Assembly: GCA_937996685.1 (NCBI GenBank)
Contig: CALKUP010000001.1
Coordinates: 117,571 to 181,570, forward strand
Source: an uncultured bacterium
GTDB lineage: Bacteria; Patescibacteriota; Patescibacteriia; UBA9570; XYC2-FULL-38-9
DNA length: 64,000 bases
Direction: 5' to 3'
How positions within the stretch are numbered: position 1 is the stretch's first letter; each line of letters begins with the position of its first letter. The notes under the pieces were generated by a model. That model did no database searches. It saw only the letters and a program-made list of their open reading frames with translations, and was not told the DNA's origin. Positions 1,687 to 53,864 of this stretch are shown here, piece after piece. The translations under genes and the position numbers were made by a program.

Positions 1687-4600
1687 ATGCCCAAACAAGC
1701 GCAATCACCTGCCACAACAGTGGCACACACTGACCCGGTAACCGGTCGTCTGTACTTTACTGATCCAAGTGAAGCAACAGAAATGCCAAATCTGATTGAA
1801 TCCCAAAAGGCTTCATATGATTGGTTTTTGGAAAAAGGTCTTCGTGAGTTATTTGATGAAGTAACACCAATCACTGATTTTTCTGATCGTGATTTAGAGT
1901 TGCATTTCATGGACTATTATCTTGATGAGCCACGATTTGACGAAGTAACAGCAAAAGCGAAGAATTTGACGTTTGAAGCAGCGCTTCGTGTCAACACAAA
2001 GCTCGTCAACAAGCGATCAAATGAAATTAAAGAACAAGAAGTCTTTTTGGGCGACTTTCCATTGATGACTGATCGCGGAACGTTCATTATTAATGGTATT
2101 GAACGTGTTGTTGTTTCACAGCTCATCCGTTCAGCTGGTGTGTTTTTCACTTCAAATTTCTTGAAAGGAAACTTTTACTACGGTGCAAAAATTATTCCAA
2201 ACCGTGGTGCGTGGCTTGAAGTTGAAACAAATCATGACAATGTGATCTATGTAAAAGTAGACCGTAAACGGAAAGTAGCGATTACTGCATTGTTACGTGC
2301 TTTTGGGTACAGCACAGATGAAGAAATCATGGAATTGTTCAAAGATGTTGATACAAATCCAAACAATCAATACATTGCTGCGACATTAGAAAAAGATATT
2401 TCAAAAAACGAAGCAGAAGGTTTGAAAGAAGTGTACAAACGTATTCGTCCAGGTGATCTCGCGACAGTTGATAACGCTCGTTCATTAATTCACGCAATGT
2501 TCTTCAACTTCGATCGTTATGATTTTGGTCGCGTTGGTCGATACAAATTGAACAAACGTTTTGGATTTGATGATGTAGAAAATATTCCAGATAACCGTGT
2601 ATTGCGTCGTGAAGACATTGTTGCAATCATTTCTGAAATCATTCGTTTGAACAATAGCCAAGAACAACCAGATGATATTGACCATCTTGGAAATCGCCGT
2701 ATTCGTGCCGTTGGTGAATTAGTACAAAACAAATTCCGCATTGGACTTTCACGTATGGAACGCATTGTGAAAGATCGTATGTCAACGAAAGATGTTGAAA
2801 CACTCACTCCTGGTGTGTTGATTAACGCTCGTCCAGTCATTGGTGCAGTGAAAGAATTTTTCATGAGTTCACAGCTCTCACAATTCATGGACCAAACAAA
2901 TCCACTGGCAGAACTTGAACATAAACGTCGTTTGAATGCGATGGGTCCGGGCGGTCTATCTCGTGAACGCGCAGGTTTTGAAGTTCGTGATGTACATCGT
3001 ACTCATTATGGTCGTATTTGTCCGATTGCGACTCCTGAAGGTCCAAATATTGGTCTCGTTGGTCACATGAGTTCATTTGCGCGTATTAATGATTTCGGTT
3101 TCCTCGAAACTCCATTCCGCAAAGTCGTCAAAGAAAAAGATGGTCGGATGCGAGTGACTGATGAAATTGTCTATCTTGATTCATTCGAAGAAGAAAAAAG
3201 TACAACAACAGCTGCAACAACACAGATTGATGCTGATGGGTATTTCCTCGTTGAAAAAGCGGAAGTGCGTCACCACATGCAACCGACAATTATGGATGTC
3301 ACAGAAATTGAATACATGGACGTGTCTCCAAAACAAATCATTTCTATCTCAACAGCCTTGATTCCATTCTTGGAACATAATGATGCGGTTCGTGCATTGA
3401 TGGGTACAAACATGCAACGCCAAGCAGTTCCAACCATTAAACCACAAGCACCGATCGTCGGAACAGGCGTTGAACTTCGTGCGGCAAAAGATTCTGGACA
3501 AGTAGCGGTTGCAACCGAAGATGGTGTTGTTGAACACGTTCAAGCGAATAAAGTCACAATCAAAGAAAAATCTGGTGGATACAAAGAATACCATTTGAAA
3601 TCATTCCAACGTTCAAATGCGTCAACATCGATTAACCAAAAACCAATTGTGTCTGTTGGTCAAAAGATCAAAAAAGGTGACATCTTAGCAGACGGTGCGT
3701 CAACCCAAGGCGGTGAGCTCGCGATTGGTCAAAACGTTGTCGTGGCATATATGCCATGGGAAGGGGGTAACTATGAAGATGCGATTTTGCTTTCTGAACG
3801 GTTAGTACAAAATGATCGCTACACATCAATTCATATCGAGGATTACACAATCGATGTGCGTGATACAAAGCTTGGGCCTGAGGTGATCACTCGTGATATC
3901 CCAAATGTGTCTGAAGATAAATTGAAGAACTTGGATGAAAACGGCATTATCCGAATCGGCGCGCAAGTTGGTAGTGGTGACATCTTGGTTGGAAAAATTA
4001 CTCCAAAAGGTGAAACAGAATTGTCAGCAGAAGAAAAATTATTGCGTGCGATTTTCGGTGATAAAGCCAAAGATGTAAAAGATAGTTCATTGTATCTATC
4101 ACATGGTGAACACGGAAAGGTTGTTGATGTAAAAATCTTCAGTAAAGAAAAAGGTGATAAATTGCCAGCTGGTGTGACACAAAGTATTCAAATCAGTATT
4201 GCACAACTGCGTAAAATCCAAGTTGGTGACAAAATGGCTGGACGTCATGGAAACAAAGGTGTTATCTCACGTATTGTTCCAGTTGAAGACATGCCATATC
4301 TCGCTGACGGAACACCAGTTGATATCATTTTGAACCCACTCGGTGTCGTGTCTCGTATGAACTTGGGTCAAATTTTGGAAGCCCATCTCGGTCTTGCGGC
4401 TCGTAGTCTCGGTTACACTGTTGCAACACCGCCATTTGCCGGCATTCCAGCAGAAGTGATTCGTGATGAATTAGAAAAAGCTGGTTTCCCACGTGAAGGT
4501 CGAATCCCTCTACATGATGGTCGTACTGGTGAAAAGTTTGATCAACTCGTGATGTGTGGTGTGTCATACATGTTGAAATTGAATCACATGGTTGAAGACA

Positions 4601-9107: not shown

Positions 9108-10769
9108 ATGAGCATTCCAGCACAACAATCCGAATCACTGGTTTCTGAACTACAAAGCGTGCTTGCAAAAATTATTGCGGAAACAAATGGTATCGCCTTG
9201 CGCAGTACCCTTGATTTATTGCAACAATCACCGGTTGATGCATTTTCTTCCGATGCGCACCGTGCAATTGATGAGTTTTCTAAACTTCTAACAGCATTTC
9301 AAATTCGCCACGTTCCTATTGAGCAAGTCCTTGAGCATCCGTTTGCAGAGGCGTTATTTAATTATTTTCACGATTTCGGACTGCATTTTCAAGAGCACCA
9401 CACGCATTTGACCGGCGCGCTTGATGAGTCATTTGTGTTTCCGCGATTGCAAGAGGCGCTTGCAGGGCCGCACGGCGCGCAAATTGCCGAGCAAATTCGA
9501 GAAGTGTACGGCATTGATGCGAGTACATTGAAGACACCAGAAGATATCAGCGCGCTGATTCGATTGCGTGATGATGAGTCAGACCAGCCATTTGTGCAGT
9601 ATTTGCGAAAAATGTTGCTCACAAAAGTGGTGCTGACAACCAAGCAAGCGCATCACGACGCGGCATATCATATGGCAGAGAGGTTGTGGAATGAAGCCAA
9701 TGTTGGGTTTATTCGTTTGAAATGGTCATTTTCTCGCGCAAACTCCACTGGAGCTGCTGAGGAAATTCCTGGAATGGAGCATTTATCGTCTGAAGATATT
9801 ACCGTTGCGCTGTATGAAGGTTTCCGTGATTTTCAATCCAAGCATCCAGGCTTTTCATTTGAACTCGCGCCATCGTTTCGTAAAGAATTAGATTACTTTG
9901 ATACAAGTCGTTTTCAAGACAAGCAAGAAGATATCAATAATCAGGTGAATGAAATTTTAGCGATTATTGATCGTCATCCAGAGCTTGCTGCGGTGATGAC
10001 GTCGGTTGATACGGTTGGAAATGAAATGCATTTTTATAGCAAAGAAAATTACATGGCATTTAAGGCGGCATTTCGAAAATTGCAATTTCGTGGTTTTAAA
10101 ATCCGTAGTCATCACGGCGAAACATGGTACACATTGCGTCGCGGTATCCAATCAGTTGATAATGCGCTCAATATTTGGTCTATTGATGCGGTGGAACATG
10201 GCGTTGCGCTTGGGATTAACCCGAATTATTATTTTCATCGCTTATTTCAAGAAGCGCTTGAATATAACGTTCAACAAAAACCAATCGCTGAAGGAACGAG
10301 TTTGTGGCGTGAATTGTCTGACATGGATTGGCGCTCAGACGGCCATGTACTGACAAAATTATTACAAGGTGACCTATTGTCAGACGAAGATCGTACTGCA
10401 TTTATTAAAACAAAGTTTCACACATCCCGGGAAGTCGAGCGGTATCAACATGATATTTTAAATCGGATGATTGATACTGGGGTTGAATTAGTGTCGCTGC
10501 CATCATCAAACTATAAACTGACAACCCAATTTGGTGATTATAAAGAACATCCATTTTCTTGGTGGGAGAAAAAAGGCATGGAATTGAGTATCGGAACAGA
10601 TAATTATGTCTTGCTCAATTCAAATATTATTCGTGAAATGTTGATTTTATTATTTACTGATCCGGAAGGATTGAAGCTGACAAAATTGCTCATGGTTGCA
10701 ACTGGTGAGCACCGTCGTCCCTATATGAGTAGTGTTTTGTGGGACATGCGTCGCGATAAAGGGATTTAA
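9108..10769 (+). CDS. Adenosine/AMP deaminase-family (metal-dependent amidohydrolase) protein. The ORF-track start at 8991 lies inside the rpoC terminator, so the in-frame ATG at 9108 after the promoter is preferred.
   Basis: Motif order matches the ADA family by eye: HTHLTG (HxH metal site), SHHGETW (HAGE-like), IDAVEHGVAL, and LSIGTDNYVL (TDD-like). At 554 aa it is longer than canonical ADA. Confidence 0.45.
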   Translation: MSIPAQQSESLVSELQSVLAKIIAETNGIALRSTLDLLQQSPVDAFSSDAHRAIDEFSKLLTAFQIRHVPIEQVLEHPFAEALFNYFHDFGLHFQEHHTHLTGALDESFVFPRLQEALAGPHGAQIAEQIREVYGIDASTLKTPEDISALIRLRDDESDQPFVQYLRKMLLTKVVLTTKQAHHDAAYHMAERLWNEANVGFIRLKWSFSRANSTGAAEEIPGMEHLSSEDITVALYEGFRDFQSKHPGFSFELAPSFRKELDYFDTSRFQDKQEDINNQVNEILAIIDRHPELAAVMTSVDTVGNEMHFYSKENYMAFKAAFRKLQFRGFKIRSHHGETWYTLRRGIQSVDNALNIWSIDAVEHGVALGINPNYYFHRLFQEALEYNVQQKPIAEGTSLWRELSDMDWRSDGHVLTKLLQGDLLSDEDRTAFIKTKFHTSREVERYQHDILNRMIDTGVELVSLPSSNYKLTTQFGDYKEHPFSWWEKKGMELSIGTDNYVLLNSNIIREMLILLFTDPEGLKLTKLLMVATGEHRRPYMSSVLWDMRRDKGI

Positions 10770-27551: not shown

Positions 27552-28604
27552 ATGGCAACAAAAAAAGATGTTGAACCAAAAGAAGCAAAGACTGTAAAAG
27601 AGGTTAAAGAAGACGGGAAGCAGCAGGCAGCGCAGCTCGCAATTGCACAAATTCGTGATCGATTCGGCGAAGGATCGATCATGAAGCTCGGGGATTCAAA
27701 ACATATGAATGTTGAATCAGTGCCGAGTGGTTGTCTCTCTTTGGACTTGGCTCTTGGGGTCGGAGGAATGCCACGTGGTCGCGTTGTTGAAATTTATGGG
27801 CCAGAATCATCTGGTAAAACCACTTTAGCGCAACATGTGATTGCAGAAGTGCAAAAGATGGGCGGAACAGCAGCGTTTATTGACGCAGAACATGCGCTGG
27901 ATCCTGAATATGCAAAAAAGATTGGCATCAACACAAATGACATGTTGATTTCTCAACCAGACAATGGTGAGCAAGCGCTTGAAATTTTAGAAACACTGGT
28001 ACGATCAAATGCAGTTGACGTGATTGTTGTCGACTCTGTTGCAGCACTCACTCCACGTGCTGAAATTGAAGGGGATATGGGAGATTCTCATATGGGTTTG
28101 CAAGCGCGTTTAATGAGTCAGGCGCTTCGTAAGTTGACAAGTATCATTTCAAAAACAAACTGCGTTGTGATTTTCATCAACCAAACCCGAATGAAAATTG
28201 GCGTTGTGTTTGGTAATCCAGAAACAACAACTGGTGGAACAGCGTTGAAATTTTATTCTTCTGTGCGTATTGAAGTGCGTCGCGCAGCCCAAATTAAAAA
28301 GGGTGAAGTGACAATCGGTAATCGTGTGAAAGTCAAAATTGTGAAAAATAAAGTGGCCGCTCCATTCCGTACAACAGAATTCGACATTATGTACAATGAA
28401 GGTATTAGTTTATCCGGCGACTTACTTGATACTGGTGTCGCATTAGAATCAATTAAGAAAAGTGGAAATACCTATTCATTCGGTGAAGAAAAACTTGGTG
28501 TTGGTCGTGAAGCAGCGAAGCAATATTTGAATGAGCATCCAAAACTGATGAAGGATATTCGAAAAGCCGTAATGACAAGTGTTGCAGAAAGTAAAAATAA
28601 ATAA
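27552..28604 (+). CDS. recA: Recombinase RecA.
   Basis: Walker A is [11 protein letters not shown]. The rest is a classical RecA sequence. 350 aa. Confidence 0.96.
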
Positions 28605-28625: not shown

Positions 28626-28653
28626 AAGACCAAGGATTACTTGGTCTTTTTTA
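28626..28653. terminator. Bidirectional terminator between recA and the convergent membrane-protein gene.
   Basis: Stem gaccaag / cttggtc, a T6 run on the plus strand, and an A6 run upstream that serves the minus strand. Confidence 0.65.
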
Positions 28654-29044
28654 GTTGCTGACGTTTCTTTTGAATACCGCGCTGTATAATGTAATAGACT
28701 TCAACTGCAAGGCCAGCTAGTAGTGCGTCAATAAAAGCGGTGATCACCATTTGCGGAACTATAGAAAATAGCGCAGCAACTGAGAAGTTGCTCACGACAA
28801 CAAATAATGATTGCAAGAGACCAATGATTGCACCGACAAATACCCCGACAACAGCAGAGACTTTCCATGATTCTCGGATTGCAATAGTGTATCGACTAAT
28901 CATATAGACAACAAACAGATGTACCCCAATCAAGATATAGAGTTGATAGACATTAAAGTAGGCAGCGCATGATAAGGCTGTGCTGCCAATGACAGTCCAG
29001 AAGAGTTTTTCGAGGAAATACTCGGTACGTTCGGTCGGTTCCAT
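28637..29044 (-). CDS. Small integral membrane protein (about 4 TM helices).
   Basis: 135 aa, strongly hydrophobic with TM-like segments, and a basic C-terminal tail. Confidence 0.45.
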   Translation of the reverse strand: MEPTERTEYFLEKLFWTVIGSTALSCAAYFNVYQLYILIGVHLFVVYMISRYTIAIRESWKVSAVVGVFVGAIIGLLQSLFVVVSNFSVAALFSIVPQMVITAFIDALLAGLAVEVYYIIQRGIQKKRQQLKKTK

Positions 29045-29100
29045 ATGCAGCCTATTGTATCATAAAATTGTCTGTGTTAGGGTGTTTTTGGAGGTGAGTT

Positions 29101-29187
29101 ATGCCGTTTGGTCGGTCATTGGCAGAATTGACTGTGGTTATCGTAGTTCTGGTCGCCTTCGCGATGTACTGCGTGTCTCGGCCATGA
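29101..29187 (+). CDS. Tiny hydrophobic peptide 1 (28 aa, MPFGRSLAELTVVIVVLVAFAMYCVSRP) in GC-rich island D.
   Basis: A strong SD, GGAGGTG, ends 4 nt before the ATG. It has a single TM-like core. Its stop overlaps the next start as ATGA. Confidence 0.4.
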   Translation: MPFGRSLAELTVVIVVLVAFAMYCVSRP

Positions 29188-29315
29188 GCGGCGGGAACAT
29201 TCCGCATGGACTTGGCGACATCATCCTCGGGGTGGCTGTCTTCGTAGTTTTCGTGGCGGCGCTTTCTTGCGCTGGGTTCATGTATATGGTTGGGACTTTC
29301 TTCGGATTGTTCTGA
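29184..29315 (+). CDS. Tiny hydrophobic peptide 2 (43 aa, MSGGNIPHGLGDIILGVAVFVVFVAALSCAGFMYMVGTFFGLF), translationally coupled to peptide 1.
   Basis: ATGA start/stop overlap. It has a GxxxG-containing TM segment. It corresponds to the 3' part of ORF-track 28980..29315, whose 5' part overlaps the opposite-strand gene. Confidence 0.4.
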   Translation: MSGGNIPHGLGDIILGVAVFVVFVAALSCAGFMYMVGTFFGLF

Positions 29316-29354
29316 CCCTTTGTCTATTAGATAGGTTTTAGTATACTGCTCAAT

Positions 29355-30179
29355 ATGGAGTTTAAAGCAATAAACCCAAAAACAGAAAAATCACAAGGAG
29401 TGGGTGTTGATTTTTCTGTGGAAAATTTTGGCAATTTTATTGTTGTTCATTCTTCAGAGGGGAGAGCTCTACGGTTGAATGGCGGACTTGAAATTAAGCG
29501 TATTAATAATGAGCAGTGCAGTTTTTTGGTTTCCCTGGATAAGGAAGGTCTTCATGCTGCATATATACCGGGAGTTGATATTTTCCGCATTGGAAAAGGA
29601 GTTTTATCTGACTTTGAAAAGGATCCATTGATTGCTGATAGAGTGTTTGCTCATGAAGCAGCGCATAGAAGGTTTTTTCAATCGTCAAAAATGGAACAAG
29701 CCACACTGGCTGATGGCATGTATTTGGATAATCCCGAAGCTTTTCAGCGGCTTACTCATTCTTTTTATAATTCTAGATTAGGTAAATCCTACGCAGGAGT
29801 GCATGGCCACGATTTTAATGTCGGTGATTTTTTAACGAAAGGAAAAAAATCAGGTTTAAGAGATGACCGTGTTTTTCAATTAACTGAAAGTGATGACATG
29901 AGGTTGGGATTATTTGTGACAGAGATGCTTTCTTATATGTCTCCATTATTCCTCCCTAACGGTCAATTAGAGTTTGAAAAAGAAGCGGCTGGGTATAAAG
30001 ATCCTGTATCGGGAGGTTCTTTTTTTGAAAACTTATATAGAATGTATACTGTTCTCATGGATATGCCTGACCGACAAAAAATACAATATACATCTTTATT
30101 TCGTGACGCTTCCCCTCAGTCACTCTCAGTTTTTCGGCAATTTATTGCTGATGTTCAAAAAAAACAGAAGCGCCAATAA
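29355..30179 (+). CDS. Hypothetical protein with an HExxH (HEAAH) motif. It is a possible zinc metallopeptidase-like protein.
   Basis: 274 aa with native AT-rich codons. The only recognisable feature is AHEAAHRRF. Confidence 0.4.
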   Translation: MEFKAINPKTEKSQGVGVDFSVENFGNFIVVHSSEGRALRLNGGLEIKRINNEQCSFLVSLDKEGLHAAYIPGVDIFRIGKGVLSDFEKDPLIADRVFAHEAAHRRFFQSSKMEQATLADGMYLDNPEAFQRLTHSFYNSRLGKSYAGVHGHDFNVGDFLTKGKKSGLRDDRVFQLTESDDMRLGLFVTEMLSYMSPLFLPNGQLEFEKEAAGYKDPVSGGSFFENLYRMYTVLMDMPDRQKIQYTSLFRDASPQSLSVFRQFIADVQKKQKRQ

Positions 30180-37366: not shown

Positions 37367-37599
37367 AAAACGTGGTGGTAGTCAGTTGTATATAAGGATA
37401 GATTTTTTGAAATAGTGCCTTAGTATAGTCCGATTTTTGTGATTGGTCAACTCTTTCTGGTTCAAGGAATAATTATTGACAGATAGGGTAAAAAATCAAC
37501 AAAGACGTATTTTTCAGATCCCATCGTTTCCTGTTATTGCACGCCTTGATTGCGCCTGCCAACACACAATACCTGTGTGTTTGTTCCTTGGAGTTCATC

Positions 37600-38184
37600 A
37601 TGATCCGTTTTGTTTCCGTAGCGCTGTTTTTCTGGCTCACCCTCTACAGCGCCTCTCCTGCGTGGGCTGGCGGTGGGTGGGGTATTCCAGTGAACCCGGA
37701 ACTCTGCGCTGAAGACGGCACGCCGATGGATGCTGATGGCGACGGCATCTTCACCCACATTGAAGACAACGACGGTGATGGCGTCTCGGTCTGCTACGAA
37801 GGCAACCACCTTGTGTGGGATCAGCCGGGTTGGGTGCAGTTCATGACCGCGAACTTCACGCGGATTCAGAACAAGCCGGGTGACCTTCAGTTGTACATGC
37901 TGCAGCACATGTACACGCCCTACCTCCTGGACTGGGTATATTTCTTCCAGGAGATGACAACGGTCCGGACTCCTGGAGGCGGTCTCGGTTATTCGTTTGC
38001 CGATGTCGAAGGAGATTGTGACGACAACGATCCGAACCGCTTTCCCGGCAACTGGGAGGTGATGTTCGACGGCGTCGACGCTGACTGCAACCCGATGAAC
38101 GAGGTCTGCATTCCTGCGATTGTTCCACCTGGTTGGCCGGGGTACGCCTGGGCTGTTGGGATGAAGTATTGGGACTGTCCGTGA
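37600..38184 (+). CDS. Secreted protein with a MopE-like putative metal-binding Cys/Asp motif (GC-rich island E). It is a paralog of 40661..41188.
   Basis: GGAG lies 6 nt before the ATG. The signal peptide is MIRFVSVALFFWLTLYSASPAWA. The motif GDCDDNDPNRFPGNWEVMFDGVDADCN resembles the myxobacterial MopE-type metal-binding repeat. DxDGDG stretches are present. The gene is GC-rich. Confidence 0.5.
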   Translation: MIRFVSVALFFWLTLYSASPAWAGGGWGIPVNPELCAEDGTPMDADGDGIFTHIEDNDGDGVSVCYEGNHLVWDQPGWVQFMTANFTRIQNKPGDLQLYMLQHMYTPYLLDWVYFFQEMTTVRTPGGGLGYSFADVEGDCDDNDPNRFPGNWEVMFDGVDADCNPMNEVCIPAIVPPGWPGYAWAVGMKYWDCP

Positions 38185-38302: not shown

Positions 38303-38878
38303 ATGTCGTTTACAGAATATGTCAGATCTGATACACACACCCTCATGTCAACAGCGCTATTACTCACATTATTTGAACAAGAATATGAATCTGTGTATCG
38401 ATTCATCTATTTTCGCGTGTCTCACAAAGAAACCGCAGAAGATCTTGTTTCAGTGATTTTTGAAAAAGCCGTAAAACATATTGATCGTTTTTCGAAGCAG
38501 GAAGGAGCAACGCCGCGTTCATGGCTCTTTACCATTGCTCGCAACACGCTGATTGATCATTACCGTTCGCAAAAATATATTGAACCACTGGATGATCACA
38601 CGGATCTCACAGACGAATCGCATGATGCGCTATTGTCTGACATCGATACGCAGATTGTTATGGAGAAAGTCTTTGAAGTTATTCCGCAATTATCACCGCG
38701 TGGACAAGAGTTGATTTTATTACGGTTCCAAGCTGATTTTTCCAATAAAGAAATTAGTCAGATTACCGGCCTCCATGAAAAAGTTGTCGCATCTGGAATC
38801 AGCAAGGCCATCCGTCGATTACAACAACTCATTATAGAATCCAAACAACAACCATCCATTGAAGAATCTCTTTTATGA
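38303..38878 (+). CDS. ECF-type sigma-70 family RNA polymerase sigma factor (copy 1).
   Basis: Region 2 is LVSVIFEKAVKHIDRFSKQEGATPRSWLFTIARNTLIDHYR. Region 4 is LILLRFQADFSNKEISQITGLHEKVVASGISKAIRRL. 191 aa. Confidence 0.8.
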   Translation: MSFTEYVRSDTHTLMSTALLLTLFEQEYESVYRFIYFRVSHKETAEDLVSVIFEKAVKHIDRFSKQEGATPRSWLFTIARNTLIDHYRSQKYIEPLDDHTDLTDESHDALLSDIDTQIVMEKVFEVIPQLSPRGQELILLRFQADFSNKEISQITGLHEKVVASGISKAIRRLQQLIIESKQQPSIEESLL

Positions 38879-40506
38879 AACCGATTACACCCCAACATTC
38901 ATCATTCGAAGAGCAGCTCACTCGTGCATTCCATGAGCAGAGTGTTCCTGAGCACAAAGCACATCGTCGTGCGGTGTTTCAGCGCTTGCAAGAAGCAGTT
39001 GCTGTTGAACACATATCGTACTCAGAGCGATTCCGTCACTGGGTGCGTCGTCGGTTTTTATGGGTGTCTGTATCCGCTTCAACGCTTGCGCTGGCTGGTA
39101 TTCTCGTTGTGTTTTTCGGCGCACCGGTTGCTGAGCAGTACATTGCTCAGCGCCAAGGAAATACAAATTCAATTTTAGACGCGCTGGCACCTCAAGAATT
39201 ACTTGCGGAGTCAATTCAAAATACATTTGCTGCAAACGATGGCATTCGTCATGTAATGTTTCATACGGTTCGTGAAGATGTGAACACTGACAAGACAACA
39301 TCAGAAGCAAAAGAAGTGACAGCGCGCACTGATCAGGAATATTATATTGCGCCAGATGCGTTTACTGGTTTTTTGCATAAAACAGGACCAAGCGTGCAAC
39401 AAGAGAAGAGTTATCGAATGACAAAGCTAAGCGCTGATACACAATCGATTGAAAATTGTGTCATCAACATCAATATGAAAAATGCTCAGTCAATAAAAAG
39501 TGCCAATGCAGAGTTATCTGGTGAGAATGTATGTGGGTTAATGGGGATTGAAGACTATGCAGGTTTTGCAGAAACACAACCAGCGCTTGATATCCAAGAT
39601 CTTTCATACAATACAGACCTTGATAGCGAGCAGATGTCATTTACAACCGCAGAGCCAATTGATCCTAAACAACTTGGTATTTTGATTGCGGAACCGTCTT
39701 TTGTGAAATATATTTCAGAGTTTATTGATGCACAAAATAATATTGCCTTTGCTCCAATTGCATTGTCTCCACTCGGGAATGTATCTGGAGCAATTGCCGA
39801 CCCTGAATGGAATGTGCCGGTGAATGGTCGATACAAACAATCCTTCGTGTATATGTTAGATGGGCGCTATGCACATGACACCTTAACAGAAGCAACGCAA
39901 ACGCCGGTCCGCATTTTTTCTGAAGTGCAATTACAATTTGTGCAGCTCAACACAGCACTTCTTGAAGCAACGACGCTTCAAGAAAACGGCTATGATCCAA
40001 AATTATTTTCAGCTGCATCTCAAGTGTTTCAAATCAAGTTTTCTGATGAATGGAAACTTGAGAGCGTGAATGCGCTCACGCAAACACCTGAGGACATTGC
40101 GCAGTTTAACGCACGTCGGTTGGCAACACGTAAAGAAATTTTTACAAACAATTCAGGTGAAACATTTTTTAACTACATTGCAGGAGGGTCGGCAGTGTTT
40201 GCGCAACTCCATGATGTGAAGCCTCGGGTAGAGGGGAATGAGTATGTGTATAGTGTCCAGCAGGAGTGGAATCCAGATAATCCTGATATGCATATGATTG
40301 GAACAACAGAGGTGCGTGTTGATAGTCAGACTCAGCTGTTAACGGCAATTATTGAGCGGTATGACTACCCAGAAACACAGCAAGCAACGGTCTACACAAC
40401 AACCTTCGATGCACTGAAAACAACCACAGATAATACAGACACGTTTTTTTCTGAGAAGGCATGGAAAGAGCGCGCCAAGGAGATTATAAATGACTCACGG
40501 TACTAG
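38875..40506 (+). CDS. Anti-sigma-factor-like single-pass membrane protein (copy 1).
   Basis: Its start overlaps the sigma gene's stop by 4 nt (ATGA). It has an N-terminal cytoplasmic segment, one TM helix (LWVSVSASTLALAGILVVFFGAPV) and an extracytoplasmic domain of about 450 aa. It is paralogous to 41884..43527. Confidence 0.5.
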   Translation: MKPITPQHSSFEEQLTRAFHEQSVPEHKAHRRAVFQRLQEAVAVEHISYSERFRHWVRRRFLWVSVSASTLALAGILVVFFGAPVAEQYIAQRQGNTNSILDALAPQELLAESIQNTFAANDGIRHVMFHTVREDVNTDKTTSEAKEVTARTDQEYYIAPDAFTGFLHKTGPSVQQEKSYRMTKLSADTQSIENCVININMKNAQSIKSANAELSGENVCGLMGIEDYAGFAETQPALDIQDLSYNTDLDSEQMSFTTAEPIDPKQLGILIAEPSFVKYISEFIDAQNNIAFAPIALSPLGNVSGAIADPEWNVPVNGRYKQSFVYMLDGRYAHDTLTEATQTPVRIFSEVQLQFVQLNTALLEATTLQENGYDPKLFSAASQVFQIKFSDEWKLESVNALTQTPEDIAQFNARRLATRKEIFTNNSGETFFNYIAGGSAVFAQLHDVKPRVEGNEYVYSVQQEWNPDNPDMHMIGTTEVRVDSQTQLLTAIIERYDYPETQQATVYTTTFDALKTTTDNTDTFFSEKAWKERAKEIINDSRY

Positions 40507-40660
40507 AATTGATAAAAAAGCCCTGAAATATGGGCTTTTTTGGTATTCATACGTACTTTTGCATATCCATCGTTGTAGTGTATGCAGTCGTGATTCGGCG
40601 ATTGTGTACCTTGAGATCACCTTTCAGCGACCAAGATCGCTCATTGCAACTGGAGTTCTC

Positions 40661-41188
40661 ATGCTTCCCATGTTTTTGGCATTCCTCGCAAACCACACCG
40701 ACCCGCAGATTTTCCAGGTGGTAGGCGACGCGCTTGTCACCGCTCCTTCGGATGGCTGCCTCATTGAGCAAAATGTCTGGGTCGACCTCGACGGCGACTT
40801 CCACTTCCAGCATTGGGAGGATCGGGACCTCGACGGCTACGGAAACTGCTACGACGAGCAGGGCCGAGTTGCCTGGATGTTTCCGGGTCTCGCTCGTGAG
40901 TTCACCGTGAATTTCGGTGACTACATGAACCACGCTGCGCAGGCACGTGCGCATTGGCCGTTGGGTCTCGCGATGCTCCCGATGAATGCTCCGGAGCAGT
41001 TCAATCTGCCCTGGACCATGCCGGGTTGGAGCTTCTGGTTTGATCCGATCACGCATCGGCAATACTTGAACTTCCAGGAAGCGATGGCGGGAGATTGTGA
41101 TGACAGCGATCCGAATCGATTCCCGTATAACCAGGCTGACGTGCCGGGTGACGGGTTCGACGAGAACTGCAGCCCCTTCGATGAGTAA
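40661..41188 (+). CDS. Secreted MopE-like metal-motif protein (GC-rich island F). It is a paralog of 37600..38184.
   Basis: GGAG lies 5 nt before the ATG. The ORF-track start at 40490 is AT-rich sequence overlapping the upstream gene, and GC-rich coding begins near 40660. The motif is GDCDDSDPNRFPYNQADVPGDGFDENCSP. Its architecture is similar to 37600. Confidence 0.5.
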   Translation: MLPMFLAFLANHTDPQIFQVVGDALVTAPSDGCLIEQNVWVDLDGDFHFQHWEDRDLDGYGNCYDEQGRVAWMFPGLAREFTVNFGDYMNHAAQARAHWPLGLAMLPMNAPEQFNLPWTMPGWSFWFDPITHRQYLNFQEAMAGDCDDSDPNRFPYNQADVPGDGFDENCSPFDE

Positions 41189-41367: not shown

Positions 41368-41877
41368 ATGACGCTTGAACAAATCGCCGCGCTATTCGAC
41401 ACGTATCACAAACCGATTTATCGTTTTGTGTATTTACGTGTGAATCACATGGAAACAACCGAAGATTTGGTCTCTGCGATTTTTGAAAAAGTCGTTCGGC
41501 ATTATGATGCGCTTGCGCCAAAAAATGACGAGCTCGCATTTCGCAAATGGATTTACACCATTGCACGCAATACAGTGATCGACTACTATCGCACACAAAA
41601 GCAGACAGACGATATCGCGGATTATGATGTCGTTGACACGGCGCAGATGCCAGACATTGCACTCGACACCGCGATGAATCTGGAAATGCTGCAAAGCCAT
41701 CTTGGGGCTCTGACTGACCGACAACGTGAAGTGCTCTTGTTGCGATACCAGTCCGATTTTTCAAATGTGGAAATTGCGGAGATGCTCGACATTGATCAAA
41801 AAACAGTCAGCAGTATCTTGAGTCAAGCGATCAAACGTTTAAAAAACAGTGTTCAATCCGTTCAATCAATTGTGTAA
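41368..41877 (+). CDS. ECF-type sigma-70 family sigma factor (copy 2).
   Basis: Region 2 is LVSAIFEKVVRHYDALAPKNDELAFRKWIYTIARNTVIDYYR. Region 4 is VLLLRYQSDFSNVEIAEMLDIDQKTVSSILSQAIKRL. 169 aa. Confidence 0.8.
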   Translation: MTLEQIAALFDTYHKPIYRFVYLRVNHMETTEDLVSAIFEKVVRHYDALAPKNDELAFRKWIYTIARNTVIDYYRTQKQTDDIADYDVVDTAQMPDIALDTAMNLEMLQSHLGALTDRQREVLLLRYQSDFSNVEIAEMLDIDQKTVSSILSQAIKRLKNSVQSVQSIV

Positions 41878-48908: not shown

Positions 48909-49469
48909 CTACATGCCAAGCGCAAGAATTGCCTGTGACCAAGCAAGTGCGACAACAATAAAGACTGTCACAACAGTTGCAAGAACATACAGTTCGCCGA
49001 GTCGTGTGATTCTGTGCATGGCTGGGCTGTGAACGATTTGTTTTGCGGCTGTTTCGACTTGGAGTAATTCACGTTTCATTGTCACGGTAGCTGTTTTAGC
49101 AGGGGTGCGACGAGACGCTGTTTTTTTCACCGCTTTTTTTGCAGTAACCTTTTTCGCAACAGGCTTTTTGGCAGCAACTTTTTTTACAGTACGAGCTTTT
49201 TTTGTTTGCACAGCCTTTGCTGCTGTTGTTTTTGTGCTACGCTTTTTTGCTGAAGTTGCAGTTGTAGTAGATTTTTTCTTCGTTGTTCCGGTAGTCGTTT
49301 TCTTCACCGCTTTTTTTGCAGTAACCTTTTTCGCAACGGGTTTTTTGGCAGCAACTTTTTTTGCGCGCACTGTTTTTGTCATTGGCGCACTCGCAAGCGA
49401 CAACACTTCATCCTCGAGTGTGACTGTGCGCTTTCGATTTTGTTGTTGTTTTGGTTTTTGTACCGCCAT
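48909..49469 (-). CDS. Lys/Ala-rich histone-H1-like basic protein with a C-terminal TM anchor.
   Basis: 186 aa. The stretch TVKKVAAKKPVAKKVTAKKAVKKT occurs twice, encoded by a ~70-bp DNA direct repeat at about 49121-49190 and 49301-49370. The C-terminus is hydrophobic (LYVLATVVTVFIVVALAW). Confidence 0.55.
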   Translation of the reverse strand: MAVQKPKQQQNRKRTVTLEDEVLSLASAPMTKTVRAKKVAAKKPVAKKVTAKKAVKKTTTGTTKKKSTTTATSAKKRSTKTTAAKAVQTKKARTVKKVAAKKPVAKKVTAKKAVKKTASRRTPAKTATVTMKRELLQVETAAKQIVHSPAMHRITRLGELYVLATVVTVFIVVALAWSQAILALGM

Positions 49470-49527: not shown

Positions 49528-51735
49528 TTAATTCCACGGAGATTTCCAGACAGCAAGTTCTTTTGGAATTTCATCGAGAAAGCGTGACGGTGGATTGACG
49601 TGCATTTCTCCGTAGCGCATGCGTTGTGATGCGAATAAACAATACACTTGATGTTCCGCGCGAGTCAGTGCCACATAACATAGTCGACGTTCTTCTTCCA
49701 TTTCTTGTGGGTCAACCAGTGAGCGAGAGTGGGGGAATAATCCTTCTTCCATTCCAACGATAAAGACAATCGGAAATTCCAAACCTTTCGCCGCATGCAC
49801 AGTCATCAGTTTCACAGCATTTTCTGTTTCATCAACTTTGTCTTGATCAGACACTAATGCAACATCTTCTAAAAATGTTTGCAACCCTTCTTGTCCGCGT
49901 AAGTGCATGAATTTTTGTGTTACATTTTTCAATTCCAAGACATTTTCCCAACGCATTTCCGCTTCTTCTTTGGTTTCTGAAGTTTTTTCCAAATGCTCTT
50001 TAAAGCCAATTTCTGTTGTGAGTAATTGCAGAATTTCAGTTGGATTGAGTTCTGCCATTTTGTCATGAACAGTCGCGAGTTCCGCCGCGAATTGATAAAA
50101 CTTTTGTAACCGCGCACTTTGAATTTCCGGGATATCGTTTCGCGCCGCTTCAATGACCGTCATGTTTCGGGTTCGAGCGAATTGTTCAATTTTGAACCAG
50201 GTGCGATCACCAAGTCCGCGCGCTGGCACATTCACAATTCGTTCCATCGCCACCCAGTCACTCGGGTTAAACAACACTTTCATATACGCAAGCAAATCTT
50301 TGATTTCACGGCGTTCATAAAATCGTAAACCACCAATTAATTGATAGGGAACACCGTATGTCAAAAAGGCTTCTTCAAGCGGACGAGACTGCGCATTGGT
50401 GCGATATAACACAACGTACTTTGAAAAGTCGATGGAAGATTTATTGTTTTTGACGTAGTCCGCCAAGTCTGATGTTTCTTTATGTGCTTGAAACATTTTA
50501 CTGCCCATGATGCGGTCCAAAATACTTTCACCTGTTTGAATTGGTGTTTCGTCTGGATCTGGTTGCGCGTATTCATCGTCATACGTCACTTCATCATCAG
50601 AGCCGTCTGTTCCGCTGCCATCATGTTCTTTGATTTTTCCGGTAATCACTTCAACAATATATTTTCCTTCAGCGTCACCGTTTTCTAATTCACGAACAAT
50701 AATTGCATCACCGCCAGGATTTTCCGTCCACAACTTCTTTTTCTTTTGCTTTGGATTGTTCGCGATAATTGCGTTACTCGCGTTGAGAATTGTTTGGGTT
50801 GAGCGATAATTTTGTTCTAAGAAAATTTCAGTCGCATCAGGATAGTCTTTTTCAAATTCAAGAATGTTGCGAATGTCGGCTTGTCGCCATGAATAAATTG
50901 ATTGCGCGTCATCTCCAACGACGCAAATATTTTTGTGAGCAGCTGCGAGCATTGTCACGAGTTGGTATTGCGCTTGGTTGGTATCTTGGTACTCATCAAC
51001 CAAAATAAATTGCCATAAGTCTTGATATTTTTTGAGCACCTCTGGATATTGCTTGAACAGCTCAACGGTTTTCATGATCAAGTCATCAAAGTCGAGGGCG
51101 TTGTTGGTTTGTAAATCAGCTTGATATTTCGGATACACAACCGTCACTACTTCTGATAACGCATCTGAGCTTTCAGCGGCAACTTGCCCTGGAGTTTTTA
51201 ATTCATTTTTGGCTTTACTGATTTGCCAATGGACCAACGACGGCGCAATTTGTTTTGTGTCGTATCCATTATCCTTCATGATTTTTTTCACCAATGTCAG
51301 TTGTTCGTCTGAATCGTAAATCGTGAAATTGGTCTCATATCCAATGGCAGAAATTTCGCGGCGGAGAATACGGGAGCAAACCGAATGGAATGTGCCCATT
51401 ACTGGTGGGTGTTCCAATTTTCCAACCAACGCTTCCATCCGCTCTTGCATATTGCGCGCTGCCTTGTTTGTAAAGGTCACGGCGAGGATGTTCCATGGTT
51501 TTGCAAAACCACCAGCGACAAGATAGGCAATGCGATGCACCAAGGTTTTGGTTTTGCCAGAGCCAGCACCAGCGAGAATCAAGACTGGGCCGTGCATTGT
51601 TTCAGCGGCAAGACGTTGCTGTTCGTTTAATGAATGGAGGATTTGATCAGCGACAGAGTAGACGCCGACAGAGCCAGCAGAAGCAGGGGAGGGCGTTTGA
51701 GATTCGTTGGGAGTTGATTTGGATTTTTGAGACAT
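49528..51735 (-). CDS. pcrA: UvrD/PcrA/Rep-family ATP-dependent DNA helicase.
   Basis: Walker A is LILAGAGSGKTKTLVHRIAYLV. The SF1 helicase motifs, including VDEYQDTN and a C-terminal domain, are present. 735 aa. Confidence 0.88.
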   Translation of the reverse strand: MSQKSKSTPNESQTPSPASAGSVGVYSVADQILHSLNEQQRLAAETMHGPVLILAGAGSGKTKTLVHRIAYLVAGGFAKPWNILAVTFTNKAARNMQERMEALVGKLEHPPVMGTFHSVCSRILRREISAIGYETNFTIYDSDEQLTLVKKIMKDNGYDTKQIAPSLVHWQISKAKNELKTPGQVAAESSDALSEVVTVVYPKYQADLQTNNALDFDDLIMKTVELFKQYPEVLKKYQDLWQFILVDEYQDTNQAQYQLVTMLAAAHKNICVVGDDAQSIYSWRQADIRNILEFEKDYPDATEIFLEQNYRSTQTILNASNAIIANNPKQKKKKLWTENPGGDAIIVRELENGDAEGKYIVEVITGKIKEHDGSGTDGSDDEVTYDDEYAQPDPDETPIQTGESILDRIMGSKMFQAHKETSDLADYVKNNKSSIDFSKYVVLYRTNAQSRPLEEAFLTYGVPYQLIGGLRFYERREIKDLLAYMKVLFNPSDWVAMERIVNVPARGLGDRTWFKIEQFARTRNMTVIEAARNDIPEIQSARLQKFYQFAAELATVHDKMAELNPTEILQLLTTEIGFKEHLEKTSETKEEAEMRWENVLELKNVTQKFMHLRGQEGLQTFLEDVALVSDQDKVDETENAVKLMTVHAAKGLEFPIVFIVGMEEGLFPHSRSLVDPQEMEEERRLCYVALTRAEHQVYCLFASQRMRYGEMHVNPPSRFLDEIPKELAVWKSPWN

Positions 51736-51867: not shown

Positions 51868-51929
51868 AGGATTGTTGCAGTTGGTTGACTCTAATATTAG
51901 TCAATAATCAATCAACCGCAGCAATCCTG
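51868..51929. promoter_or_regulatory. Nested inverted repeats in a divergent intergenic region. This is a candidate operator.
   Basis: The outer arms are AGGATTGTTGC at 51868-78 and GCAGCAATCCT at 51919-29. The inner palindrome TTGAC-TC-TAATATTA-GTCAA lies at 51885-51904. Confidence 0.4.
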
Positions 51930-52011
51930 AATATCGCATGCATCTGACAGATCCGTCGGGTGTGTGCAACGCATCGAACTGCCCAGCATTGACTGGGTTT
52001 TGGAGTCTCTC

Positions 52012-53835
52012 ATGATGAAGCTCATCTCTCGGAATGCCTTCGCGATCCTCTTCGTCACCCTCGCGGTGGCGTGCGGCTTTCTCCCTGATACGATCGGGGG
52101 AACCGGGCTGCACCCGGTCGCGGCCGACACGGTCGACACGACGGACGACGTCCGCACTGACGACACGCCGTCGTCGGACATCGTCGGTGTTCACACGACG
52201 AATACCAACGTCGGCAACACCGACACGGTCGACACGACGGACGACACCGACATCACGCCGGACACCGGCACGGACCTCCTCCCTGTCACCGGCGACACGC
52301 CGGCTGACACGGACATCGTCGACACGACGGACACGACGGACACGACGGACACGACCGAGCCCGTCGACACCGACGTGACGTGGTCCGAGACGGATCCACC
52401 CGCAGATGACCAGTTCCCGCCCTACGCGTTCGTAGGCTACGGGCACTACCAGTTCTGTGGCGACCCCGCGATCCCGTGGGAGCCCTGTCTTCAGAACCGG
52501 GTGGTCTACGGACGCCCGCTCCAGGAGCGTCCTGCCGCCTGTGTTCCTGGAAACCAGTACGCTCCTGGGGAGCTTTCGAGCGACGTGCTCGTCTGCTTTC
52601 TGGACTACTTCCGCGGCCAGATCCACGGTGTCATCTCTGTTTTTAACCCGGCGACGCACGCCTGGTCCGACCTGCCGAATGGCGGGCCTACCAACTTCGT
52701 GCAAGCGGGACTCGTCGAGCAGCGTGGTGCTGTTCAAACGAGTCAAGTCAGCTCGTTCCTCTTTGCTCAGCTCGAGCCGGGGAGCGAGCAGATCTCGCTG
52801 ATCGTCCGGAGCCCCAACGGCCCGCTCATGCGGCGCGGGGCAAACGGCGTTTGGTCGCAAGACCGCGCCTTCTTCACTGCCTGGCAGGCCGCCGGCATGG
52901 CGCAGATGAGCGAGTCGATCGTCCGGGACTTTGACCGCAACGGTCTCCCGGACATCGGGATGATGCGCTGCCTCCAAGGCAACTGCGACCCGGTGATTTT
53001 CTACCAGACGGCGCCTGGCGCCTGGCAGAGCTCAATGAACGTGACCCGCATCCCGTACAAGTCTTCGGATGTGTACGAGTGGGACGCGATTCAGGACTCT
53101 GCAACCGGCGCTTGGACGCTCGTCGCTGCTGGCGGTTTCACCGACATGCAGCGCGCCGGCTCCAGCGGCATCTTCGTAGAATACGGGACCGGGCCCGACG
53201 GCTTCCCGGCGTACGTCGAGGCCAATGGTACGAATGCCGCCGGAATGGCCGGAATGGGTGTGACCCATTTCGACCCCCGCGGCATCGACGCCGCTGGCAA
53301 CTCCACGCCGTTCCCGGACGGTCAACCGGAGATCATCGTCTCCAGTCAAACCCAGTGTCCAGAGATGTTGCAAAGCCTCTTCGGCTGGGCTGGGGTGGAT
53401 TCGTGGGTCAACCTGACCCCGAACTACTCCAACTGGATCCAGCAAGGAGGGCGCTTTCGCCCTGGCTGCTGGGAAGACGCGACCCCGGAAACTGAGGATC
53501 TCGCCTGGGGCGTGGAACTCGTCCTTGAGGACTTGCTGCTCGTCGCCAAGGGCGACGACGGCCGAGTTCTTCCGACGGGTCACTGCGACCGAGCCGAGTG
53601 CCCTCAGGACGGCGAGCCGATCATCGGCTACAAGCCGTGGCACGGACGCTTCTGGGCGTATCCGCTCGGGCGCCTGCAGTTTGTCGACCCCTTGGGGAAC
53701 GACATTCTGCTGGGCAACCGGCGGACGCTCGACGTCCACTACGTCACCGGCGCCGACGGCGTCACCCGCACCGTCGTCGTGACGGGTGGCACCTGGGAAA
53801 ACGGCAATCCTGAAGTTTGGCTGCTCGAGGAGTAA
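52012..53835 (+). CDS. GC-rich lipoprotein-like secreted protein with Thr-Asp repeats (island G).
   Basis: GGAG lies 6 nt before ATGATG. The lipoprotein-like signal is MMKLISRNAFAILFVTLAVAC. Repeats of the TTDTTDTTD / VDTTDD type come from tandem gtcgacacgacggac DNA units. An FG-GAP-like segment (DRNGLPDIGM) is present. GC is strongly elevated. Long minus-strand ORFs here are artefacts. Confidence 0.55.
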   Translation: MMKLISRNAFAILFVTLAVACGFLPDTIGGTGLHPVAADTVDTTDDVRTDDTPSSDIVGVHTTNTNVGNTDTVDTTDDTDITPDTGTDLLPVTGDTPADTDIVDTTDTTDTTDTTEPVDTDVTWSETDPPADDQFPPYAFVGYGHYQFCGDPAIPWEPCLQNRVVYGRPLQERPAACVPGNQYAPGELSSDVLVCFLDYFRGQIHGVISVFNPATHAWSDLPNGGPTNFVQAGLVEQRGAVQTSQVSSFLFAQLEPGSEQISLIVRSPNGPLMRRGANGVWSQDRAFFTAWQAAGMAQMSESIVRDFDRNGLPDIGMMRCLQGNCDPVIFYQTAPGAWQSSMNVTRIPYKSSDVYEWDAIQDSATGAWTLVAAGGFTDMQRAGSSGIFVEYGTGPDGFPAYVEANGTNAAGMAGMGVTHFDPRGIDAAGNSTPFPDGQPEIIVSSQTQCPEMLQSLFGWAGVDSWVNLTPNYSNWIQQGGRFRPGCWEDATPETEDLAWGVELVLEDLLLVAKGDDGRVLPTGHCDRAECPQDGEPIIGYKPWHGRFWAYPLGRLQFVDPLGNDILLGNRRTLDVHYVTGADGVTRTVVVTGGTWENGNPEVWLLEE

Positions 53836-53864
53836 ACCTCGTACTACTGCAACCAGCTTCACAC

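Follow-up and report, generated by a model that had tools for sequence, protein, structure and literature searches.

We analysed a small-gene locus in a 64,000-nt stretch of Patescibacteria DNA (contig CALKUP010000001.1 of assembly GCA_937996685.1), referred to below as the window, in which two short open reading frames (ORFs) of 28 and 43 codons, pep28 and pep43, are embedded between a membrane-protein gene on one side and an ORF with an HExxH motif (HEAAH) on the other. The initial annotation, which had been made from the letters alone, described these ORFs as a GC-rich pair of translationally coupled peptides with single transmembrane (TM) segments, and its account of the individual parts is borne out. 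The Shine-Dalgarno (SD) sequence GGAGGTG is located at 29090-29096, 4 nt before the ATG at 29101, and the TGA of pep28 overlaps the ATG of pep43 as ATGA at 29184-29187. The GxxxG motif is present in the second peptide (G37-G41 of pep43), no double-glycine leader was found in pep28 or pep43, and the neighbours on both sides are as claimed. Both peptides are single-TM-like, with in-frame hydrophobic stretches that exceed those of shuffled sequences (matched by fewer than 1 in 5000 shuffles for pep43, and P = 0.002 for pep28). The ORFs and the signals around them are as follows.

29052-29083, plus strand: conserved 5' block with the putative promoter region, 94% identical over 32 nt to loci L084, L086 and L088 of related genomes
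29063-29068 (TAAAAT) and 29075-29083 (TGnTAGGGT), plus strand: predicted candidate -10 boxes
29090-29096, plus strand: SD sequence GGAGGTG, invariant in seven of seven orthologous loci
29101-29183, plus strand: 83-nt segment, present in the window genome and absent from six relatives
29101-29187, plus strand: pep28, a 28-codon TM-like ORF encoding MPFGRSLAELTVVIVVLVAFAMYCVSRP, with its TGA at 29185-29187
29184-29315, plus strand: pep43, a 43-codon ORF encoding MSGGNIPHGLGDIILGVAVFVVFVAALSCAGFMYMVGTFFGLF, the conserved small membrane-peptide gene
29288-29317, plus strand: terminator-like hairpin of 9 bp + 2 bp with a cUUCGg tetraloop, the stop TGA (29313-29315) lying in its 3' arm
29318-29328, plus strand: U-rich tail CTTTGTCTATT, conserved after the hairpin

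Conservation and coding evidence

Six syntenic relatives were available for comparison, three of them reached from the RodZ-like gene as anchor (RodZ 66-68% identical) and three more through members of the RodZ and GroEL clusters. All six keep the gene order ftsK, rodZ, recA, a four-TM membrane-protein gene (minus strand), a short gap, and groEL and groES (minus strand). RecA is 89-91% and GroEL 83-84% identical between the relatives and the window, and GroEL is 98-99% identical among the six, which makes the window genome the outgroup to the others. The same unit is found in every relative, consisting of the conserved 5' block (CTATTGTATCATAAAA..GTCTGTGTTAGGGT), GGAGGTG, an ATG 5-6 nt past the GGAGG core and one ORF of 30-38 codons with the ending TTCTTCGGAT(T/G)GTTCTGACCCTTTGTCTATT. 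A conserved 29-mer of the unit reads CTTCGGATTGTTCTGACCCTTTGTCTATT, and the 5' block follows the pattern TGTGTTAGGGT-N7-GGAGGTG. Other intergenic regions are 47-68% identical, against the 94% of the 5' block, and the block occurs once in the window, where 0 occurrences are expected by chance; no second copy of the unit was found there, which makes it single copy. Since GGAGG occurs 45 times on the plus strand of the window, an SD followed by an ATG is not compelling by itself, and the significance of this one rests on its invariance in all seven loci. In 80 Patescibacteria loci of GTDB that were anchored on recA and are more distant, we did not detect the unit, and the 274-aa HExxH gene on its 3' side is absent from them as well.

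The single ORF behind this SD encodes the following peptides in the relatives.

L084: MSGNINPLGVATIFWATIMAALLSATALCVVGAFFGWF
L086: MSGTAHRGMTSMVLVFVFLSGAFCSGLILMVGAVFGWF
L088: MGNTHPAMTSMVLAFLVVVVFLCAGIASAVGAFFGLF
L089: MSGTAHPGMTSIVLVFVLLCGAFCAGTAGAVGAFFGLF
L090: MGTAHPAMTSILLVSLLLCGVICAGAAGAVGAFFGLF
L087: MQDFLLYTFPLWLFGAIVGEVWVMACFGLP

These peptides are homologous to pep43: a few polar residues at the start (MSG.. or MG..) are followed by a single hydrophobic helix, the motif C[AS]G and the C terminus VGxFFG[LW]F. The C-terminal half of pep43 presents the conserved small-residue face C[AS]G-x5-VGxFFG[LW]F. Against a hidden Markov model built from four orthologues of other genomes, with the window sequence excluded, pep43 scores 23 bits. 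The proposal of a dedicated, conserved two-peptide system is not upheld by this comparison, as the pair occurs in the window genome only and the six relatives hold a single pep43-type ORF behind the same SD. Nor does the 111-aa frame, which had been put forward as the product that might replace the two peptides, hold up as the real one: it spans the conserved divergent promoter region, enters the membrane-protein gene and is not conserved, and its upstream extension is interrupted by stops in the relatives, where the stop-to-stop frames begin 21-51 nt before the ATG. In L084 (GCA_964492735.1) the public gene call over the small gene is an 84-aa Prodigal ORF in the wrong frame (10463-10717), which starts inside the promoter block and is not conserved elsewhere; we rejected it as an annotation artefact that hides the real 38-codon ORF.

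An open frame runs from the conserved ATG to the conserved TGA in seven of seven loci (30, 37, 37, 38, 38, 38 and 43 codons), and the indels within it are of whole codons only. Frame 0 alone is hydrophobic, with T at codon position 2 at a frequency of 0.41-0.50, compared with 0.16-0.33 in the other frames, and a best 17-residue hydropathy of 1.9-2.9 is reached in the reading frame only, in peptides of 30-43 aa. When the ORF interior, hairpin excluded, was shuffled with dinucleotides preserved, the hydrophobic stretch gave P values from <0.0002 to 0.037 per orthologue. Between L089 and L090 the proportion of synonymous differences in the small ORF (pS) is 0.43, compared with 0.41 for groEL, and the ratio of nonsynonymous to synonymous proportions (pN/pS) is 0.24. 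The segment encoding HPAMTS differs between L088 and L090 by five synonymous and no amino-acid changes, and the C[AS]G motif is spelled TGC GCT GGG, TGC TCC GGG, TGC GCC GGC and TGC GCC GGT. Together these signatures argue that the pep43 ORF codes for a protein and that the peptide is under purifying selection. Of the initial claim that both small TM ORFs are coding, the part concerning pep43 thus gains comparative evidence, and for pep28 the intrinsic TM signal is the only evidence.

The GC enrichment noted initially is present and is not extreme, as 29101-29315 has a GC content of 0.54 against 0.445 for the window, a value that 7.7% of 215-nt stretches match or exceed. It does not mark a foreign island. 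GC at third codon positions (GC3) is 0.62-0.74 in the five orthologues for which it was computed, in genomes of ~44% GC, and lies well above the genomic 0.375 in all seven; high GC across the orthologues is a trait of the family rather than a mark of recent import.

Profile searches of Pfam, NCBIfam and PHROGs gave no match for pep28, pep43 or the fused 71-mer, the PHROG hits of the peptides being weak ones to families of unknown function with none at E ≤ 0.1. Searches of protein databases for the two peptides came back empty, with no candidates from a word-index search and 0 matches from an exhaustive phmmer run against 1.84 billion representatives. Exact look-ups in protein databases returned no record, pattern scans of viral contigs and metagenomes with the fused peptide found no relatives, and the 3' block was not found in viral contigs.

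The hairpin at the 3' end is formed by the last ten codons, the stop and two more bases. When folded by itself it reaches -13 to -22 kcal/mol in the five loci tried, with z between -2.6 and -5.4, and in the alignment 90% of cells are paired, compared with 31-56% after the partners had been slid. In L087 two pairs have changed at both bases in a compensatory way, and five more have changed on one side. The window tail (CUUUGUCUAUU) has 5 U in its first 8 nt and that of L087 (UUUCUUGUG) has 6 of 8; hairpin and tail together are 87-89% identical to L084 and L086. In the window the tail doubles as the -35-like TTGTCT of the next gene's promoter. Hairpin and tail were not called by the terminator scan, and the hairpin would act either as a terminator or as a 3'-stabilising element, with the transcript predicted to end there. 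It is the sole prediction of RNAalifold, which finds no conserved structure in the transcript body, a further point in favour of coding. A structured RNA elsewhere in the region is not supported: Rfam gave no match at gathering score in the window and only chance-level hits (E 1-5) within 28900-29500, tRNA and tmRNA genes were not found, and 29045-29354 folds no better than shuffled sequences (z = -1.05 and -0.26 for the two strands), so that only the 3' hairpin survives. A 5'-3' pairing of AGGGUC with GACCCU was also considered and dropped, as it is neither kept in L087 nor predicted.

Between these conserved ends the ORF evolves quickly. L086 and L088 are near-identical strains, with RecA proteins that are 99% identical (synonymous divergence 0.06) and four-TM proteins that are 92% identical, and their flanks differ by 1 base in the 55 nt before the SD and by none in the 70 nt after the stop. 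Their small ORFs, in contrast to these flanks, differ at 38 of 114 aligned positions (33%, counted from alignments), with 21-30 of 40 bases identical in 40-nt blocks of the ORF, and peptide identity is down to 46-49%. Over its N-terminal half L086 agrees nearly base for base with L089, and L088 resembles L090, at odds with the flanking genes. The peptide thus changes far faster than its neighbours, its polar start and the first part of the helix being strain-variable, and the pattern points to allele exchange or a long-lived polymorphism confined to the ORF. Hypermutation by a diversity-generating retroelement was rejected as an explanation: no reverse transcriptase was found among the window ORFs that were scanned or the ORFs given for the loci, the window holds no template copy, and the substitutions are not limited to adenines.

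The 83-nt segment and predicted expression of the small gene

MAFFT sets the 83-nt segment against one uninterrupted gap in the other four loci of the alignment, between the SD and the ATGA. The ATG at 29101 stands at the exact position of the relatives' start codon, and because 83 is not a multiple of three, reading from it proceeds in another frame and ends at the TGA of the ATGA. The resulting pep28 has no counterpart in the six relatives and is found only in the window genome. In the pep28 frame the segment encodes a TM helix (P = 0.002 against shuffles); in the pep43 frame (YAVWSVIGRIDCGYRSSGRLRDVLRVSA) it is rich in Arg and Ser and not protein-like. The 18 nt before 29184 (GTACTGCGTGTCTCGGCC) contain no SD-like purine run. 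The claim of translational coupling is favoured by the ATGA overlap, by the lack of an SD before pep43 and by coupling being the only obvious route to its translation, and is qualified by the restriction of the pairing to the window genome. Most plausibly, pep43 would here be translated by termination-reinitiation at the ATGA, because no SD precedes it and the behaviour of AUGA overlaps is established.

We found no source copy of the 83-nt segment in the window or in 88 loci. One hypothesis is that an ORF beginning with ATGA had its first 83 nt duplicated in tandem, since such a duplication yields exactly this ATGA junction. Attractive as it is, this origin lacks statistical support: with fair nulls, pep28 shows no significant similarity to the pep43 family (p = 0.08-0.3 against shuffles), and the fixed-register scores of pep28 against pep43 reflect only a shared layout of polar then hydrophobic residues. 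A 17-nt inverted repeat (15 of 17 complementary) links 28983-28999, in the 5' coding part of the four-TM gene (WTVIG), with 29109-29125, at the start of the segment. About 0.06 such repeats are estimated to occur by chance in a 1.2-kb region, and the repeat could be a trace of the origin of the segment or a coincidence.

The small gene would be transcribed from the conserved 5' block, which carries the two candidate -10 boxes. In L087 the region between the four-TM gene and the small ORF (4104-4233) is ~75 nt longer than in the other genomes and holds extra copies of a promoter-like motif (TATCATAGAAT / TATGATAC), as if the divergent promoter region had been duplicated locally.

With respect to initiation, an SD core of at least 4 nt precedes 2 of the 29 other confident genes of the window, which equals the random rate of 6.6%. 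In 12 of the 29 (41%) a TAnnnT box ends 4-12 nt ahead of the start codon, compared with 8.8% at random positions; the start regions compared include those of the genes at 24248, 29355 and, on the minus strand, 28637-29044 and 49528-51735. These frequencies suggest that the genome is largely SD-free and that many of its mRNAs are leaderless or near-leaderless. The perfect 7-nt SD of the small gene is an exception in the window genome, and initiation at this gene would be SD-dependent.

Genome setting and neighbouring genes

The window belongs to the core chromosome of a Patescibacteria (candidate phyla radiation, CPR) genome. Its RecA (27552-28604) is 74-78% identical to that of Patescibacteria/CPR metagenome-assembled genomes (MAGs), and its genes include rpoB, rpoC, IMPDH (guaB), GMP synthase (guaA), ftsK, the RodZ-like gene, recA and groESL, together with a Wzy-type ligase, uvrA, two extracytoplasmic function (ECF) sigma factors, uvrC, uvrD and RNase J. 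No phage, plasmid or reverse-transcriptase genes were found among the ORFs scanned in the 64-kb window. The features next to the small gene are these.

28637-29044, minus strand: ORF of a 135-aa four-helix (four-TM) membrane protein, divergent from the small gene
29054-29059, minus strand: putative -10 box TACAAT of the four-TM gene, overlapping the 5' block back to back
29355-30179, plus strand: 274-aa ORF with the HEAAH motif

The four-TM gene starts 55 nt upstream of the small gene. Orthologues of 142-155 aa occupy the same position in L084, L086, L087, L088 and L090, and the four compared are 47-49% identical to the window protein. No Pfam family matched the 135-aa protein, and its single-sequence AlphaFold2 model, with four helices, a predicted local distance difference score (pLDDT) of 67 and a predicted template-modelling score (pTM) of 0.42, was judged too poor for a fold search. 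On the other side of the unit, ~70-310 nt separate the small ORF from groEL in the relatives, and the terminator of groEL takes up a large part of that space.

The 274-aa HExxH gene is missing in six of six syntenic relatives and in the more distant locus L008, and is most simply read as an insertion in the window lineage between the small-gene hairpin and the groEL terminator. The promoter scan gave it a leaderless-type promoter of its own (TTGTCT-16-TATACT at 29320-29347), with the ATG 7 nt further on. As a lineage insertion with its own promoter, it was not counted in the small-gene unit. No relatives of the 274-aa protein came out of pattern scans of GTDB genomes and JGI metagenomes. The only homologue found, P0002, is 42% identical, conserves the motif as HETCH and lies beside transposase genes (L081, 2888-3764), where a frameshift at nine consecutive G (~3021-3029) seemingly divides it; no TM mini-ORFs were found upstream of it. 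The 274-aa ORF looks like a mobile orphan gene for a putative metalloprotease.

Elsewhere in the window, a 623-aa ORF at 51964-53835 has a GC content of 0.64 and a GC3 of 0.81, compared with 44.5% GC for the genome, and no Pfam match; it is overlapped by long minus-strand ORFs at 51901-52977 and 53032-53862, and could be foreign DNA or have its coding strand mis-assigned. Each of the two ECF-type sigma factor genes lies near an ORF with a MopE-like Cu-binding motif (37537-38184, 38303-38878, 40490-41188 and 41368-41877), sets that may represent a duplicated sigma/anti-sigma-like module. The ORF at 40490-41188 (GC3 0.63) has the SD AAGGAG and is one of the two window genes with an SD. The other is a gene for a histone H1-like protein of the HC2 family (48909-49469, minus strand; Pfam PF07382 at threshold), with GGAGG 10 nt before its ATG.

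Interpretation, rival explanations and known systems

Given the observed conservation, coding signature, hairpin, 83-nt difference, rarity of SD sequences in the genome and fast mosaic evolution, the region is probably a compact, unannotated mini-gene for a single-pass membrane peptide of ~4 kDa, held at a fixed core site in a narrow clade of Patescibacteria. In the proposed scheme, a promoter region of its own and a very strong SD would lead into the pep43 ORF, and the unit would close with the terminator-like UUCG hairpin that contains the stop. In the window genome, ribosomes recruited by the SD would start at 29101, make the 28-residue pep28 and stop at the TGA of the ATGA, leaving reinitiation at the overlap as the only way to pep43, which is predicted to insert in the membrane. 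There it may act in the producer's own membrane, its conserved C-terminal face packing against another copy of the peptide or against a partner protein, a suggestion that we make tentatively; the divergent four-TM protein would be the first candidate for such a partner. pep28 would be either a recent accessory peptide or an upstream ORF (uORF) that throttles pep43. A bolder and rather improbable extension sees in the locus a strain-variable membrane-peptide module for conflict or recognition in an episymbiotic CPR bacterium, which might serve, for example, as a type-I-like toxin or to specify self or partner. Recombination would shuffle its alleles, its SD would be the only strong one in a translation system that otherwise ignores such signals, the stop within the terminator would link translation to 3'-end formation, and pep28 and pep43 would form a newly evolved two-peptide variant.

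Several observations weigh against the mini-gene as we describe it. The seven genomes behind the evidence belong to a single narrow clade and consist of MAGs or metagenome contigs throughout, and a protein-level homologue is absent among the 1.84 billion representatives, as expected if gene callers skip such ORFs. Several pN/pS values fall at 0.6-0.9, which corresponds to weak constraint across much of the peptide. Because the C-terminal motif and the hairpin stem share bases, their constraints are inseparable and the conservation of VGxFFG[LW]F, GxxxG included, belongs to protein and RNA jointly, the exception being C[AS]G, which lies upstream of the hairpin. Both candidate -10 boxes are poor matches to the consensus, and neither was called by the promoter scan. 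Of the 80 distant loci only L008 has a homologue of the four-TM protein, a weak one, whose gene lies directly against groEL with no small ORF beside it, so the four-TM protein does not need the peptide. Finally, as the window genome is the outgroup, a gain of the 83 nt here and a loss in the ancestor of the others are equally parsimonious.

Of the other explanations, the likeliest takes the 83 nt for an insertion or duplication of neutral or mildly deleterious effect, pep28 for an accidental uORF without a function, and pep43 for a product that is made in reduced amount or not made. The absence of pep28 from six of seven genomes, its lack of significant similarity to anything and its capture of the only SD, pep43 having none, all fit this account, as does the tolerance of the locus for indels (30 to 43 codons, and a longer 5' region in L087). 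Yet the pep28 frame is a clean TM helix at a level that shuffled sequences rarely reach, it ends exactly on the ATGA, the arrangement that best preserves downstream translation, and pep43, the promoter block and the hairpin are all intact; we think such silencing or throttling unlikely, though not far-fetched. Somewhat less probable to us, though the main alternative as regards function, is a module resembling type I toxins, in which pep43, and perhaps pep28, would damage membranes and be held in check by an antisense or trans-acting RNA, possibly by convergent groESL read-through in the relatives. A small, unannotated and very hydrophobic peptide on its own, predicted short transcript with a stable 3' hairpin, an aromatic C terminus (FFG[WL]F), poor sequence conservation, narrow distribution and fast evolution all speak for it. 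Searches for type I toxins have used a length below ~70 aa with a predicted TM helix, a C-terminal cluster of polar, charged or bulky residues, long flanks and tandem repeats (PMC2887945), and several of these search criteria of Fozo et al. 2010 are matched here (PMC2887945). The tandem repeat, however, finds no statistical backing (p = 0.08-0.3), the C terminus has no charged or polar cluster, and where known type I loci tend toward long flanks (PMC2887945), there is little room for an antitoxin RNA in the 55 nt upstream or the ~70-310 nt to groEL. The promoter scan gave no minus-strand promoter in the unit, no conserved antisense promoter is visible in the relatives and no small RNA (sRNA) gene was found, and purifying selection at a fixed core-genome site also argues against a toxin of this kind.

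The remaining explanations fare worse. A single-base assembly error within the 83-nt segment could have split one fused protein of ~71 aa with two TM segments: the genome is a MAG, the pep43 frame is open across the whole segment (the 111-aa frame), and one indel would join the pep28 start to the body of pep43. The segment has no long homopolymer, though, its translation in the pep43 frame (YAVWSVIGRIDCGYRSSGRLRDVLRVSA) is the Arg/Ser-rich, unprotein-like one while the pep28 frame gives the helix, and the relatives all encode one-TM peptides, which makes the error very unlikely. There is an even slimmer chance that the product is RNA, an sRNA or a translation-sensitive attenuator ending in the UUCG hairpin, with the ORF incidental or only a leader whose translation would govern downstream read-through, into the 274-aa gene in the window genome and into antisense groEL in the relatives. 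Conservation at both ends and not in the middle would suit an RNA, and with the stop inside the hairpin a ribosome close behind the polymerase would disturb its folding. Against this, in the variable middle the frame stays open, indels are of whole codons, hydrophobicity is specific to the frame and pN/pS is below 1, the transcript has no conserved structure beyond the hairpin and no Rfam match, and the relatives have no downstream gene on the same strand. The two-peptide bacteriocin and the holin/antiholin pair, both raised in the initial annotation on the strength of two adjacent small TM peptides, one of them with GxxxG, are contradicted by the gene context and we give them next to no credence: the two peptides are not conserved as a pair and carry essentially no charge, no leader, transporter, immunity, endolysin or lysis gene or phage context is present in the window, PHROG, Pfam and NCBIfam gave no match, and the position is a syntenic one in the core chromosome.

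If the mini-gene is what we take it to be, it illustrates how small membrane proteins are systematically missed by annotation, the gene callers having skipped the ORF in the relatives or, in L084, taken the wrong frame. Most genes in the tiny genomes of CPR/Patescibacteria are unexplained, and the locus adds a small-protein family at one core site. It also offers an internally controlled case for the role of a perfect SD in a genome that is otherwise SD-less and often leaderless, for the way in which a uORF-like cistron might arise through a short insertion with the downstream gene kept translatable by an ATGA, and for the reason why a ~100-nt ORF differs at 33% of positions between strains whose recA is 99% identical. 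Its practical value is modest until a function is shown.

Among known systems, the chromosomal type I toxins (Hok, Fst/Ldr, Ibs, TisB, DinQ) resemble pep43 in being shorter than 70 aa with a single hydrophobic helix and missed by annotation, and in having a short transcript of their own, a stable 3' stem-loop, a narrow distribution, weak conservation and an aromatic C terminus. They differ from it in that here no antitoxin RNA was found and little space is left for one in a site tightly packed between core genes, the peptide has no polar or charged tail, and the two ORFs are not demonstrable repeats. Class IIb two-peptide bacteriocins share the two adjacent genes for small hydrophobic peptides and the GxxxG motif, whereas here there is no double-glycine leader, ABC transporter or immunity gene, the peptides are not cationic, only one of them is conserved and the setting is core. 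Intrinsic (Rho-independent) terminators likewise have a stable stem, as here with a tetraloop, followed by a U-rich tract; unlike them, the stem of the small gene encodes the last ten codons and the stop, the U-tract is interrupted and termination is a prediction.

Small single-TM accessory and regulatory proteins such as KdpF, AcrZ, CydX, MgrB and MgtS are usually encoded in the operon of their partner and are well conserved. pep43 is like them in size (30-50 aa), in its one TM helix with a small-residue face of the GxxxG type and in its place beside the gene of a multi-pass membrane protein, but it is divergent from that neighbour, its protein evolution is about ten times faster, and the neighbour also exists alone (L008). 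Cistrons that overlap by AUGA are the classical setting of termination-reinitiation, for example in trp operons, and pep28 and pep43 share with them the four-base overlap of stop and start and a downstream cistron without an SD of its own. In contrast to those operons, the upstream cistron here is a lineage-specific one of 28 codons at the start site of an ancestrally monocistronic gene, and in this respect it is more like a newly arisen uORF.

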